In this document: positions 1 through 61,200 of the stretch, in pieces | Numbering within the stretch: position 1 is the stretch's first letter | Layout of the letters: each line of letters starts with the position of its first letter | Assembly: GCF_001677475.2 (NCBI RefSeq) | Contig: NZ_CP015229.1 | Length of the DNA: 64,000 nt | Source of the DNA: Escherichia coli | GTDB lineage: Bacteria; Pseudomonadota; Gammaproteobacteria; Enterobacterales; Enterobacteriaceae | Strand: one strand, 5' to 3' | Made by a program: the position numbers and the translations under genes | Notes under the pieces: generated by a model | Database searches by the model: none | What the model was told of the DNA's origin: nothing | Seen by the model: the letters and a program-made list of their open reading frames with translations, nothing else

Positions 1-227
<227 letters not shown>

Positions 228-356
228 TTACCCGATTCTACGAGTTGTCATTTGTTACCGGTCAGTCTACACATTTCAGATGCTGCGTTAAAAAACCCAA
301 GTACTTCAAGTAGCACATCGTCATCAACACCCAGCCCCAAGATACGGTGATAAAAT

Positions 357-1424
357 TCAAGCCTTAAGAGGCTTTGTGTATGTTCGTGTAATCCATCCAG
401 TAATAAACTCGTCCCCTGATTTAACCTGCACGAAAAGCCATTGGCGATCTTTTTTATCTAAAACAGCCACTATAGTATTTTTGCCAATGCATTCAATCAC
501 CTCACTATTTATAGAAGGACTGACGTGTAATCTTACGTTCTCACCAGTTATAAAACGAAAACCATTGAGATCTTCCCAACTAATTTCTTTGTTTTCTTTA
601 ATTAATTGTTGTTTTGATATTGGTTTATCCTCAAACAGAGATATAAAATATGATTCTGCCTTGTGTATTCCCAGCAAGGTTTTCTCTTTTCCGTAATCAA
701 TAAAAGCACCAAACACAACTTGAGAAAATATAACCATTAGTAACCATTGCAGTGGATAAGGAAGCTCTTTAAATGAATCAACAAACTTTGAGCTAGGTTT
801 ATTTAATCCTTTATTTTGAACATTACTTTTGGTGTGTGATGTTTCAGTAGCACCTTCAGCATAAGCCTGCGCAATAGATGAAATCCCCTGCTCTATTATT
901 TGATGTAATGAAGCATTTCTTGTTCTAGCATAGTGATCTAGTACTTTCTTTATGTCTTGGCTTACATCTGTTTTATAACTTGCACTTTGTTGTAATTCTT
1001 TAAGTATCGCTTGCATGTTATTTAAACCAGCTTGCTTATTAAGCACCTCAAGCTGTTTTCGTAATGGCATAGCTATTTCGGCCTGTTTCCTTAGCATTTG
1101 AATATATCTATTTGCGTCATGAGGGAAAAGAGCCTGAGTCTGTTTCTGTAAAATCGCGATATGTTCACGATACTTGCTGCCTATTCCAGCCAAGTTCGGC
1201 ATACTAGCCAATTGTTTTCGAAGAGAGTTACTAATTACAGCTTGTCTATTCAATCTTGTCATATTTTGAAAAGAATGTTTTTCTATTCCTAATTGTTTTT
1301 GCAAGATCGCTACGTGATCTTTGTATGATGGAATGAGCACTGACTGTTTATACAGTAACTTCAACTCATTAGAATTAGTAATTTTTGTCATATTATTCCA
1401 TTTATATAATAGAATATTACGCAA
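357..1424 (-). CDS. hypothetical membrane protein: KQ-rich repeats, one TM segment, C-terminal SH3b-like domain
   Basis: 355 aa ORF; repeated (H)IAILQKQ / LRKQ motifs; hydrophobic stretch LPYPLQWLLMVIFSQVVFGAF; C-terminal NVRLHVSPS...GWITRTY resembles bacterial SH3; AT-rich codon usage. Confidence 0.5.
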   Translation of the reverse strand: MRNILLYKWNNMTKITNSNELKLLYKQSVLIPSYKDHVAILQKQLGIEKHSFQNMTRLNRQAVISNSLRKQLASMPNLAGIGSKYREHIAILQKQTQALFPHDANRYIQMLRKQAEIAMPLRKQLEVLNKQAGLNNMQAILKELQQSASYKTDVSQDIKKVLDHYARTRNASLHQIIEQGISSIAQAYAEGATETSHTKSNVQNKGLNKPSSKFVDSFKELPYPLQWLLMVIFSQVVFGAFIDYGKEKTLLGIHKAESYFISLFEDKPISKQQLIKENKEISWEDLNGFRFITGENVRLHVSPSINSEVIECIGKNTIVAVLDKKDRQWLFVQVKSGDEFITGWITRTYTKPLKA

Positions 1425-1465
1425 CCAATGTTTTATTGATTGCGTTAATCTTTAACACAGAAAGA

Positions 1466-1942
1466 TCATTTGCCTCGTTTAATACATCCATCCATTTTGG
1501 CTTGTTGATACAACTTACTTAGCCCAGAAAGAGGGAATGTAGCAATTTTTTCATTATCAACATAAGCATCAATCATATTAGCATTTGAATCTGCTGCATC
1601 TTGCCAAAAGGCATACCACCAAGAATCTCCAACCATTGATCCAAGATTGCTAAAAGGATATTGCTCACCATCTATAGTTAATACTATTTTATTCTTGTCA
1701 GCATTATACTCTTTTTTATTATTCGACGAACTTAGCAACAAGCCTAAACTACCTGCACTATCTGGTGAACCATACATGAATCCCATATCACATAAAAAAC
1801 TTATCTTATCACCATTATGATTATGGATTGTATATTCTCTCCCCCCTCTCTCTTCAATTACATTCCATTGTAGAGGATCAATTTTTGCAAATGTTCCTGC
1901 TGAAACTAACGATACAAATAATAAAAACCATCTCATATTCAT
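1466..1942 (-). CDS. hypothetical secreted protein
   Basis: 158 aa ORF; N-terminal signal-peptide-like MNMRWFLLFVSLVSAGTFA; AT-rich. Confidence 0.5.
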   Translation of the reverse strand: MNMRWFLLFVSLVSAGTFAKIDPLQWNVIEERGGREYTIHNHNGDKISFLCDMGFMYGSPDSAGSLGLLLSSSNNKKEYNADKNKIVLTIDGEQYPFSNLGSMVGDSWWYAFWQDAADSNANMIDAYVDNEKIATFPLSGLSKLYQQAKMDGCIKRGK

Positions 1943-1964
1943 TCTTTTCGCTTCTTATCTGTAA

Positions 1965-2315
1965 TTATTCTGCAATATCATTTGCCCATTGCACGGCAGC
2001 AAAATGAGTACCCAAACCACTCAGGAAAGCAATTACCCCCAAAACAATACTTGCTGCTGTTGATTCAAACAAAGTACCAATACTATAGCCAATAGCTCCC
2101 CATACTAAGCTAAATACAATCATCAATGGTATTGCCAGAAATTTTATTCTTAAACTAAAAATCAGTCCAAGAAAAGAACCGCCAAAGGCCCACCATGATT
2201 TAGACATTAAACCTATCAGTATTGACAGAATTCCTATTTCAATAAAGAGAATATTAGATTGCTCTTCATTGAATTTCGCATTTGTTACACCTTTACGAAC
2301 ATGTTCAGATGACAT
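1965..2315 (-). CDS. hypothetical small integral membrane protein
   Basis: 116 aa ORF with several hydrophobic helices; first gene of the minus-strand low-GC cassette. Confidence 0.45.
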   Translation of the reverse strand: MSSEHVRKGVTNAKFNEEQSNILFIEIGILSILIGLMSKSWWAFGGSFLGLIFSLRIKFLAIPLMIVFSLVWGAIGYSIGTLFESTAASIVLGVIAFLSGLGTHFAAVQWANDIAE

Positions 2316-2461
2316 GATTAACTATCTCCTGCCACAGATAAAACGCCTTAAAATAACATTTTGTAGCATAAAGTTTCACCATGCAATGGTCAAAATCTTT
2401 GACCCATATCAATTAAACTCATACATTTTAGTTACCAGGGAAATAATTTACATGGTTACAA

Positions 2462-2478
2462 GTTGCTCTAATTATTTT
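2462..2478. promoter_or_regulatory. C1 repressor operator-like site (14/17 to ATTGCTCTAATAAATTT)
   Basis: gttgctctaattatttt in the divergent intergenic region between the cassette and the c4/icd/ant module. Confidence 0.4.
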
Positions 2479-2549
2479 ATTTTTTTAGCTTCATATGCTA
2501 CATTAACTTGCTTGCGTGCTAATGCATTTTCGGTTTATCCTAAACAGGC

Positions 2550-2627
2550 ATCTTAGTAAAATGGATGCCGGGATTGGAACCCCGGATAATGCAAAAGGCG
2601 ACACAGACGCCAAAAGCGTCTTTTTTT
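2550..2627 (+). ncRNA. c4: c4-type antisense RNA candidate (immI); ends approximate
   Basis: hairpin ccggg-attggaac-cccgg (2568-2585) then gacgc-caaaa-gcgtc + T7 terminator (2606-2627); loop complementary to gttccaa at 2730-2736 in the icd leader; block conserved with second copy at 50709-50811. Confidence 0.4.
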
Positions 2628-2812
2628 GTGTCATGCCATCGCACAGCCATACGTAGCACATAGCTCCGAGATCAATGGTAGTGCTGGCTGGGCTGCCGAA
2701 AGGCAGGCCGGTTCCCTTTTGCGCCGGTAGTTCCAACCCAGTCAGTGCTACCGCCATTGAGATTGGAACCTCACGCGGTAGCTCCTTAAATTAGCAAAAG
2801 GAGGCTGCCATT

Positions 2813-3034
2813 GTGGCTACTATCCCTACCCCTACTCATCCTGAATTTATCTGGCGCTTTTACTCCTGCCAAAAACACCACTATCACTTCGTTATCGCAG
2901 CAACAGAAGACGAAGCACGCTCTCAATTGCCTGATGGCCCCTGCATTTTTACTGCCCGTTTTTCAACTAACTCGCGCAATTCACTTAGTTACTGGAACCT
3001 CCCCTTCTCTGCCGACGTTCAGGGGGGTTTATGA
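2813..3034 (+). CDS. icd: Icd-like small protein (cell-division inhibitor of immI)
   Basis: 73 codons, GTG start with aaaggagg RBS; stop overlaps ant start (ATGA); position and size as P1 icd (from memory). Confidence 0.7.
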   Translation: MATIPTPTHPEFIWRFYSCQKHHYHFVIAATEDEARSQLPDGPCIFTARFSTNSRNSLSYWNLPFSADVQGGL

Positions 3035-58267: not shown

Positions 58268-61200
58268 ATGTCACTTTCTGTTTATAATAATAAAAAAAAT
58301 AGCTCTTCAGGGGGGAACTCTCCTCGCTTGACCCTACTGGCAGCTATAATCGGCGCATTATTTTCAAATGCTTACGCTTCAACAACTGCTATTAAAATTG
58401 ATAATGATGTTCAAGTTAATAAAGATAACCTCGATATTAATACGGGCAGTAATACAGGAAGTAATGGATATGCGATCTCTGTCACAAATTCAGGTGAACT
58501 AACTACCGAAGGTACAGTGACGTTATCTACAGAAGGTGATAAGGCAAACGGAGTTAATATATCCAGTGGGTCTAAAATTAACTCTCAAGGTGGGATTACA
58601 ATAACCACAAAAGGCAAAAACGCCTCTGGCATTTCACTTGATAATAATTCTTCAATGACTATCGCTAACGGTATGTCAATTACAACAAGTGGGATAAACG
58701 CTACAGGGATTAATGTTGACAAATCTTCACTAACTGTTGAACAAGGTGATATTAACACATCTGGTGTAAATGCTAGTGGTGTTTCTATTTTAAATGGAGG
58801 CCAAGCCAGTTTAAATAAAGTTAACATTACCACATCTGGAGATAATGCCAGAGGTATTGTTAGCTCTGGCATAAATAGCAAAATAGTAATTAGCGACTCA
58901 ACCATTACCACTCTGGGGGATAAAAAACCATCACAAGCATGGGGAGCTCGTGGCATATCTGCCGAAAACAACGGTTATGTTTCACTAACAAATACGCAGA
59001 TTAAAACTGATGGAACAGGGGCTTGGGGAGTATCTGCATCGTCAGCTGGCTCAGCTGAATTAGCTGATGTTCATATTTCCACTTCAGGCCAAAATGGCTA
59101 TGGTTTACGTGCAGATGGCAATAACTCTAGTATATCTGTATCTAAAGGACTCCAGGTAACCACTTCTGGCAAACAAGCTCATGCCGTAACTGCCTCTAAT
59201 AATGGGAATATAAATCTTGGAGTAAATGCATCTCTTGAAACATCAGGGACGCAGGCTAATACCATCCATATCACCGGTGGTAATGGTGGTATAATAACGG
59301 GTGATAGTATCTCAATAAAAACAAATGGCACATCAGCCAAAGGTATATATGTTACGGCTTTAAATCCCTCAGACTCAGCACCTGATTCACGCGTAGAGCT
59401 GACGGGAACATCAACAATCGCCACATTAGGTGATCAGTCAATAGGTGTGTGGGGGCATGGTAAAGTAGCTGATATTAGCTTCGAGCAAATAGCTATTAAT
59501 ACAGCCGGTACTGACTCATACGGTATAAATGCACAAAATGAAGCCACTGTTAATGCCCATACAGCCCAGATTATTACTAAGGGGCTAAACTCATATGGAG
59601 CAACAGCAAATTCAGCTGCAAAAATTACACTTGGTTCTGGTTCATCGATTACAACAAGCGGTGATTATGCTCATGGAATATGGGTCAGTGATGACAATAC
59701 AGTTATTAGTGGCAATAATGCATCCATTCATGTATCAGGAAAAGAGGCTGACTCTGTAGTCGCTGCCAATAATGCAAAAGTTGAGCTTACCCAAGAGAAT
59801 GGGGTGATGATTAGCGAAACTAGATATAACTTTAATGCTAATGGTGGTGCTATTTCCGCCACGTTAGATGGCAGCCAAATAAAGAATAACGGCACATTCA
59901 TCTTCTCAACCAGTAATGATGCCGGTGTGGGAGGGAACGTTGATGTTACAGTCAAGAATACTTCCTTTAATGGCGATATTCGCGCTGATAGTAACAGTAT
60001 TGCCAATCTTTCATTAGAAAATTCCAACTGGACTGGAACCGCGTATAATGGTGGCATTGTTAATTTAGCTAAAAACAGCATCTGGAATATGGTTAGCGAT
60101 TCGGATGTTGCTCATCTTAATAATAATGGCTCTATATATTTGGGCAGCGATGCAAAAAACACTTTAACAATTAATGGTGATTATACTGGCGAAAATGGCT
60201 ATATCTACTTTTCAGGCGTTCTTGGTGACGACACATCTCCAATCGATAAGTTGGTTGTAAAAGGAAATACAGAGGGTAAAACCTTTGTTTCCGTAAACAA
60301 CGTTGGTGGTATTGGGGCACAAACACTCAATGGCATCAACATTATCCAGGTTGATGGTCAATCTAACGGTGACTTTGTACAAGTTGGCCGAATTGCGGCT
60401 GGTGCTTATGATTACACTCTTGGGCGGGGGCAAGGCGATAAAAATGGCAACTGGTACCTAACTAGTGGCAAACAACCTGAGGATCCAACTCCGAACCCGG
60501 ACCCGGAGCCAAATCCGACCCCAACACCAGGTGACAATGATCTTCGCCCAGAAGCTGGTAGCTATACGGCAAACATTGCTGCTGCAAATACTATGTTCGT
60601 GACTCGCCTACACGAACGTCAGGGGCAAATGCAGTATACCGATGTGATTACCGGTGAATTGAAAACTACAAGCATGTGGATGCGTCATGAGGGTGGACAC
60701 AATCGCTGGCGCGACGGAAGCAACCAGTTAAAAACACAAAGCAACCGTTATGTTATGCAACTGGGCGGCGATATAGCACAGTGGGGTTGGAATAAAACGG
60801 ATCGCTGGCATCTTGGCTTAATGGCCGGATACGGTAATGACCACAATAATACAGAATCTGTGCGCACAGGATATCGTTCAAAAGGTAGTGTGAATGGTTA
60901 CAGCACTGGGCTGTATGCCACCTGGTATGCCAATGATGAAACACATAACGGGGCTTACCTAGACTCTTGGGCACAGTACAGCTGGTTTGATAACTATGTT
61001 AAAGGTGATGGATTGCAGAGTGAATCCTGGAAATCAAAAGGACTTACTGCATCACTGGAAACTGGTTATACCTGGAAGGCTGGTGAGTTTACGGGCAGCC
61101 AAGGTGGTTTGAATGAGTGGTATGTCCAGCCTCAGGCTCAGGTCATCTGGATGGGTGTTAAAGCGGACGAACATCGCGAAAGCAACGGTACCCGTGTTGA

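Follow-up and report, generated by a model that had tools for sequence, protein, structure and literature searches.

Clinical and animal Escherichia coli and Salmonella frequently contain P1-like phage-plasmids, which carry resistance genes. What determines which of these elements gains entry to a cell that already harbors one is, apart from the classical sim gene of phage P1, poorly understood. SimC reportedly confers superinfection exclusion, in work attributed to Kliem & Dreiseikelmann 1989 and Maillou & Dreiseikelmann 1990. T4 Imm and Sp, P22 SieA, HK97 gp15, T5 Llp and TP-J34 Ltp are further small envelope proteins of phages or prophages that act after adsorption, and T4 Sp does so at the peptidoglycan step. 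In P1, the interval from the late promoter LPsit, upstream of pmgC, into icd holds simC-simB-simA, placed before the operator Oc4, together with a P1-type c4 region; in P7, the same interval holds upf50.0 and upf50.5 together with a P7-type c4. The simABC region is one of eight low-GC (guanine plus cytosine) hypervariable regions of P1-like phage-plasmids (PMC9603915) and is dispensable for P1 plaque formation (PMC10695390). Here, we analyze this interval in a P1-like phage-plasmid of E. coli (contig NZ_CP015229.1), of which 64,000 nucleotides, hereafter the window, were available. Positions 357-2315 carry a cassette of three genes, A, B and C, which is one allele of the sim slot and which might protect the lysogen at its envelope.

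The flanks of the slot are conserved: the window is 96-97% identical to P1 and P7 on either side. Homology to P1 ends at position 258, just past LPsit upstream of pmgC, and restarts at ~2840 inside icd, with the left recombination boundary of the variable slot at ~259. Three intact, co-directional open reading frames (ORFs) follow on the minus strand:

1-258, minus strand: 5' end of pmgC and LPsit, the conserved left flank (96% identity to P1 46374-46631; LPsit at ~235-253 by alignment to P1)
357-1391 or 357-1424, minus strand: gene C, an ORF of 344 amino acids from the ATG at 1391 chosen by PGAP, or of 355 amino acids from a TTG at 1424
1466-1942, minus strand: gene B, 158 amino acids, a predicted secreted (periplasmic) YfjT-family protein (ORF, PF27224, BLASTP, AlphaFold 2 (AF2) model)
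1965-2315, minus strand: gene A, 116 amino acids, a predicted inner-membrane protein with about four transmembrane (TM) segments (ORF, hydropathy)

The GC content of the cassette is 0.343 compared with 0.471 for the whole window, and each gene lies at 0.34-0.36; the three AT-rich minus-strand genes are found exactly where a preliminary description of this DNA had placed them. Its statement that P1 sim maps near here can be sharpened, as by the P1 annotation (NC_005856) the sim genes occupy exactly the same slot. We found no sim gene elsewhere in the window, and the cassette therefore replaces sim.

For comparison we collected 80 loci around PmgC homologues and classified the 63 that carry both pmgC and icd. 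Read from pmgC to icd, the slot alleles are:

SimC, SimB, SimA: 15 loci and two partial variants
YfjT-like B'' (37% identical to B), SimA-long (224 amino acids): 14 loci
C-type, B' (168 amino acids), SimA-long (172 amino acids): 11 loci
Upf50.0, Upf50.5: 10 loci
C, B, A, the type of the window: 5 loci
DUF4760, B, A: 4 loci
composite of DUF4760, B and C-type, B', SimA-long: 1 locus (L007)

B-family genes are the most recurrent slot component and occur in 35 of the 63 loci. All slot products carry a signal peptide, a lipobox or a TM segment, which fits an envelope-acting accessory role. Moreover, the promoter-proximal gene and the c4 allele are completely linked: A goes with a window-type c4 in 9/9 loci, SimA or SimA-long with a P1-type c4 in 42/42, and Upf50.5 with a P7-type c4 in 12/12. 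That the slot is variable and low in GC has already been published; its contents are undescribed as far as we searched the literature, and the same applies to the allele series, the recurrent YfjT-like core, the linkage to the c4 type and the remnant status of SimA that we propose below.

The linked c4 region lies immediately to the right. A, B and C are transcribed divergently from c4-icd-ant, and the intergenic region, which holds an Oc4-like C1 operator, is common to both:

2462-2478, plus strand: C1 operator-like site GTTGCTCTAATTATTTT, with 3 mismatches to the consensus, aligning with P1 Oc4
2548-2626, plus strand: isrK-like RNA (Rfam, 58.9 bits)
2671-2758, plus strand: C4 antisense RNA (Rfam, 76.7 bits)

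This arrangement bears out the preliminary description, which had the cassette diverge from the immI operon across a region with a C1 operator-like site. Over the window, 15 such sites are observed and 0.3 are expected by chance. The c4 region of the window (2316-2840) is a third allele that gives no blastn match to P1 or P7 and probably defines a distinct c4 immunity specificity. Its closest phage match is D6, which is 88% identical to the window over 2547-2961; we rejected D6 as a carrier of the cassette, of which nothing lies next to its c4. A RefSeq coding sequence for an “ash family protein” overlies the C4 RNA gene at ~2675-2794 and looks like a misannotation.

The preliminary description had further treated the three genes as one cassette, a view that the allele series contradicts, as they are not co-inherited. 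A and B are found without C; genes of C type stand by themselves or beside other partners, and A likewise can stand by itself. Because A plus B, C, and A each exist without the others, the set of three genes is the product of recombination between an A-B unit and an independent C gene. Some of the slot families nevertheless meet again elsewhere: a homologue of SimA-long, a homologue of A (58% identity) and a YfjT-like gene lie together both in L109, a diverged element of 97 kb, and in L098, a contig from a metagenome; in L109 this cluster adjoins icd. Members of the A, YfjT-like and SimA-long families thus come together again in elements that are evolutionarily far apart.

Several observations concern the other occupants of the slot. 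Between pmgC and B, some slot alleles encode a multi-TM DUF4760 protein of 297-333 amino acids on the opposite strand, which replaces C (for instance L006 2550-3443 and L007 2481-3443, both plus strand); it has no PADLOC match and belongs to a PHROG family of unknown function. The composite locus L007 also contains a broken copy of B, which we considered as a sign of redundancy with B' and rejected as such: it is a 5'-truncated, frameshifted recombination scar and uninformative in this respect. P1 SimA (52 amino acids; L001 3039-3197) matches residues 1-50 of SimA-long at 90% identity; the latter is a signal-peptide protein of 172-224 amino acids (phrog_3933) that is intact in many P1-like elements (L007 5620-6138, L035 and others). 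By this comparison, P1 simA looks like a truncated remnant left behind by the recombination that brought in simB-simC. Finally, Upf50.5 of P7 (L002 2327-2848) is named a “DNA methyltransferase” in RefSeq and PHROGs. Its sequence is that of a 173-residue lipoprotein with the lipobox LLSGC and a Gly/Ala-rich segment, and the original P7 note has it as an outer-membrane lipoprotein; the methyltransferase name looks like a propagated annotation error.

What the three genes of the window encode can be read to a different degree for each of them. By hydropathy, A has four hydrophobic stretches (~22-38, 43-57, 60-82 and 85-108) joined by very short loops, and its topology is predicted to be N-in/C-in. 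It is the promoter-proximal gene, with a GGAG 10 nucleotides upstream of its ATG. In the alignment of the A family the N-terminal motif VRKGxTNAKFNE is invariant, and the ratio of nonsynonymous to synonymous substitution rates (dN/dS) is 0.07-0.09 against the alleles of the DUF4760, B, A loci. A belongs to phrog_15014, a family of unknown function, and neither the single protein nor a set of nine A-family members matched any Pfam family.

B can be assigned to a named family. Its N-terminus, MNMRWFLLFVSLVSAGTFA followed by K, has the canonical n-, h- and c-regions of a Sec signal up to about residue 19, with the T-x-A cleavage motif T-F-A before K, so that the protein is predicted to be exported. 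The AF2 model has a pLDDT (predicted local distance difference test) score of 87.5, with low confidence at residues 1-20 only, and describes a predicted beta-rich fold with one long helix. Two cysteines are conserved in the family: C51 is invariant in the alignment and C153 is present in at least 90% of members. Pfam PF27224 (“YfjT”) is precomputed on the 99%-identical cluster representative of B (P0049) as well as on the homologue B'; B and K-12 YfjT are 26% identical over 142 amino acids (BLASTP, E 4.5e-7), B and B' are 29% identical (E 5e-22), and both of the latter fall into phrog_3429. By these sequence matches B is a member of the YfjT family. An exhaustive HMMER search for the B family returned only 21 cluster representatives, most of them of ~150 amino acids and with a signal peptide and the two conserved cysteines. 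The dN/dS of B is 0.21.

K-12 YfjT is encoded in the ypjK-yfjS-yfjT operon of the cryptic prophage CP4-57 and resembles B in size, in its signal peptide and in the positions of conserved Cys and Trp residues; moreover, each of the two genes is preceded by a gene for a small membrane protein within a mobile element. The partners differ, however, as neither YpjK nor the lipoprotein YfjS shows homology to A or C. Because YfjT is without known function, family membership yields no mechanism for B. Further YfjT-like genes are located within extended runs of small ORFs of phage type, in jumbo phages and, twice, beside genes of a type VI secretion system (T6SS). No PDB sequence matched B. Among solved structures, its model is closest to IalB (invasion-associated locus B, PDB 3dtd), which is periplasmic, rich in beta structure and of comparable size; we rejected membership of B in the IalB family in view of 8% identity and the lack of a Pfam IalB match.

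C combines a variable and a conserved half. Its N-terminal helical region contains seven L[QRN][KR]Q motifs (residues 30-121); a single hydrophobic helix (~213-234, by hydropathy) and a conserved linker follow, and residues 285-338 correspond to Pfam SH3_3 (PF08239, independent E-value 2.2e-5). As PF08239 is also precomputed on most C homologues, we regard this on sequence grounds as a bona fide bacterial SH3 domain; it is predicted to be periplasmic, with the N-terminus of the protein inside. SH3b domains usually bind peptidoglycan, and that of C may do so as well. In the alignment of the C family the N-terminus is hypervariable and the C-terminus near-invariant: amino-acid identity is 41-61% in the repeat region and 90-96% in the SH3b part, dN/dS is 0.35-0.60 in the N-terminal repeats and 0.12-0.15 in the SH3b part, and the number and sequence of the repeats differ between lineages. 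The predicted structure of C (pLDDT 45.6) was too poor for fold comparison and was not used, the search against PDB sequences gave only low-complexity helical noise, and the Pfam search detected no catalytic domain. Altogether, hydropathy and Pfam agree with the anatomy given in the preliminary description, namely a multi-pass membrane protein, a signal-peptide protein and a protein with one TM segment and an SH3b-like domain, and on the signal peptide and TM segments, for which it had called for predictions, sequence and hydropathy point to a putative Sec-type signal in B and to hydrophobic segments in A and C.

Distant homologues of C with 433-481 amino acids are found as solo genes in ~85-98-kb elements of Salmonella and Citrobacter (L008/L009 5001-6446). 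Their repeat units, such as SVSLSERITKLAQGSTIAD, are wholly different, and the SH3b end is near-invariant. Since these elements encode a 2,262-residue Eco57I/SNF2-type protein, they represent a different phage-plasmid-like family. Within the window itself, 58835-58942 (plus strand) shows weak tblastn similarity to the SH3b region of C (42% over 38 amino acids, E 0.065), which may reflect another SH3-like segment or chance.

Among 5,426 complete E. coli genomes, 36 contain the full cassette, in every case on a plasmid, and it is also present in 26 PLSDB plasmids at ≥80% query coverage. It is absent from 50,697 deposited phage genomes, in which A and C have no match at the protein level and B has 8 distant matches only. 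Because dN/dS is well below 1 for A, B and the SH3b part of C, all three are real genes under purifying selection.

Because of the resemblance to SimC in position and localization, we considered whether the cassette might work as sim does. The slot between pmgC/LPsit and Oc4/c4 is identical, as are orientation, low GC content and non-essential accessory status; products of sim and, by prediction, B are targeted to the envelope via signal peptides; and other alleles of the slot pair B' and C-type genes with a full-length SimA-type gene. Sim differs in that it has no counterpart of the four-TM protein or of the TM-SH3b protein, A and C being membrane-anchored. The P7 pair upf50.0 (DUF5384) and upf50.5 (lipoprotein) offers a second comparison: it is an alternative allele of the same slot, specifies two exported envelope proteins and has its own linked c4 allele, but it is not homologous to A, B or C. 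With T4 Sp, the possible common point is the target, as the peptidoglycan step would also be within reach of an SH3b protein or a binding protein in the periplasm; the families of T4 Imm and Sp, P22 SieA, HK97 gp15, T5 Llp and TP-J34 Ltp gave no Pfam or PHROG match with A, B or C.

We propose, on the strength of position and localization, the following course of events. The A-B unit, a four-TM inner-membrane protein and a secreted YfjT-family protein, is inherited together with the third c4 allele type, and C, which recombination has joined to it, would be a bitopic inner-membrane protein with its fast-evolving repeats in the cytoplasm and its conserved SH3b domain in the periplasm, as predicted. 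In the lysogen, the genes would be transcribed leftward from a sigma-70-type promoter of their own, and the products would populate the inner membrane and the periplasm. There they may protect the lysogen by blocking the genome entry of superinfecting P1-like phages after adsorption, as P1 SimC does from the same position. Two features may bear on the expression of the cassette:

1419-1445, minus strand: hairpin of 6+5 pairs in the 74-nucleotide spacer between B and C (scan for terminator-like structures)
2365-2393, minus strand: candidate sigma-70 promoter for A-B, TTGACC-17 nucleotides-TATGCT (consensus scan only, 9/12 matches)

The hairpin may be an attenuator or mark a recombination junction. 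The candidate promoter lies ~50 nucleotides upstream of the start of A and ~70 nucleotides from the Oc4-like operator.

A number of findings weigh against such a role. BLASTP of A, B and C against SimA, SimB and SimC gave only noise at E>3, and comparison of a B-family profile with SimC and SimB by hhalign gave a probability below 1%, with the signal peptides alone aligned; neither did A, B or C show homology to Upf50.0 or Upf50.5. SH3_3 and YfjT are the only Pfam families of the three proteins, and neither has a known function. Sigma-70 consensus matches are no more frequent in the region than expected by chance, and for this reason we treat the A-B promoter as putative. The three genes are separable, so a single joint mechanism is not required: homologues of A (58-65% identity) stand alone in chromosomes among metabolic genes, and distant homologues of C (40-48% identity) lie singly, and at other positions, in different ~90-kb elements of Salmonella, Citrobacter and Yersinia. 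C of the window, moreover, lacks ~50 N-terminal residues of the versions with 389-394 amino acids as well as the 14-nucleotide overlap with its usual partner B', and has a weak ribosome-binding site. In other alleles (L011, L007), the B' and C genes do overlap by 14 nucleotides, which implies translational coupling.

The comparison with known exclusion and abortive-infection proteins that the preliminary description had suggested thus returned nothing, be it for P1 Sim or for any exclusion or defense family of PADLOC, NCBIfam or Pfam: A, B and C have no match in PADLOC-DB v2 at E≤0.1 and none in NCBIfam, and their PHROGs are otherwise families of “unknown function”. The silence of PADLOC and NCBIfam is weak evidence, because both also fail to recognize SimC. 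Of the envelope module that had been envisaged next to the immunity region, the predicted localization stands, exported or membrane products at all alleles and the position of sim fit an accessory role at the envelope, and the relationship to Sim falls. The cassette lies outside the Sim protein families, and any sim-like working would follow from position and localization. On balance, we tentatively favor protection of the lysogen at the envelope, most plausibly as superinfection exclusion, while regarding it as short of probable.

If this cassette and its sister alleles are exclusion modules, the slot would amount to a small natural collection of mutually non-homologous proteins that act against phages at the envelope, and the YfjT family, part of the E. 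coli “y-ome”, would obtain a first function. The complete linkage of slot allele and c4 allele would then mean that repressor-level immunity and envelope-level exclusion are passed on as one unit. A broader generalization strikes us as doubtful, namely that a YfjT-like periplasmic protein with a small inner-membrane partner of A type and/or a secreted partner of SimA-long type represents a widespread and unrecognized class of phage-encoded envelope exclusion module. In that case P1 sim would be just one among five or more non-homologous exclusion cassettes taking turns in a single slot, each inherited with its matching c4 type, and the class would extend to K-12 yfjT and related genes of cryptic prophages and jumbo phages. 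C would contribute a peptidoglycan-anchored component, the rapidly diversifying repeats of which follow a phage or host partner as it evolves. If exclusion is not the function, the slot is an ordinary moron locus.

This latter explanation, according to which the genes are independent lysogenic-conversion genes (morons) that alter envelope physiology, stress tolerance or colonization of the host at a slot that merely tolerates insertions, is the strongest of the alternatives, albeit an unlikely one. Each gene family also stands alone in contexts other than P1, YfjT sits in a cryptic prophage that K-12 has retained, and the slot is a recognized low-GC insertion hotspot. The similarity of B to IalB is weak, however, and the only characterized occupant of the slot is an exclusion gene according to the P1 sim annotations. 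The repeated re-association of the A, YfjT-like and SimA-long families in different elements favors a shared task over random cargo, and YfjT-like genes are also present in lytic jumbo phages, where morons for host fitness are unexpected.

We consider it improbable that the cassette confers immunity against weapons aimed at the envelope, for example pore-forming colicins or effectors of a T6SS, with A in the part of an immunity protein against a pore-former and periplasmic B in that of one against a cell-wall-degrading effector. The size of A and its topology by hydropathy match those of the immunity proteins of pore-forming colicins, and two distant YfjT-like genes do lie beside T6SS genes. 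In the Entomomonas chromosome (L096 4607-10468), one of them is located directly upstream of a VgrG-DUF4123-VasX_N effector cluster, and the other is found near Hcp (L094 2697-5471); these neighbors may hint at an immunity-type role or be coincidental. Both contexts are anecdotal, however, and the small protein encoded upstream is in neither case a homologue of A. Pfam families of colicin or T6SS immunity proteins are not matched, and most contexts of YfjT-like genes are phage or prophage.

A function in the lytic cycle of the phage itself, for instance in lysis or in cell-wall penetration through the SH3b domain of C, is similarly hard to credit. SH3b domains are typical of endolysins, C has a weak match to the amidase family phrog_1794 that covers the SH3b region only, and the genes share the orientation of LPsit/pmgC and lie directly upstream of this late tail operon. 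Yet C has no catalytic domain, and LPsit lies downstream of the cassette, so that the late promoter does not drive it. Moreover, P1 can do without the genes of the slot, sibling phages that share its virion and lysis genes hold non-homologous genes in it, and A and C are missing from the deposited phage genomes.

That the cassette is hitch-hiking or decaying DNA without current function, as the missing N-terminus and translational coupling of C in the window, the truncated and frameshifted B remnant in L007 and the remnant nature of P1 simA might suggest, is very improbable in view of three ORFs that are intact in dozens of independent plasmids, protein clusters of 183 (C), 245 (B) and 97 (A) members, and dN/dS values well below 1.

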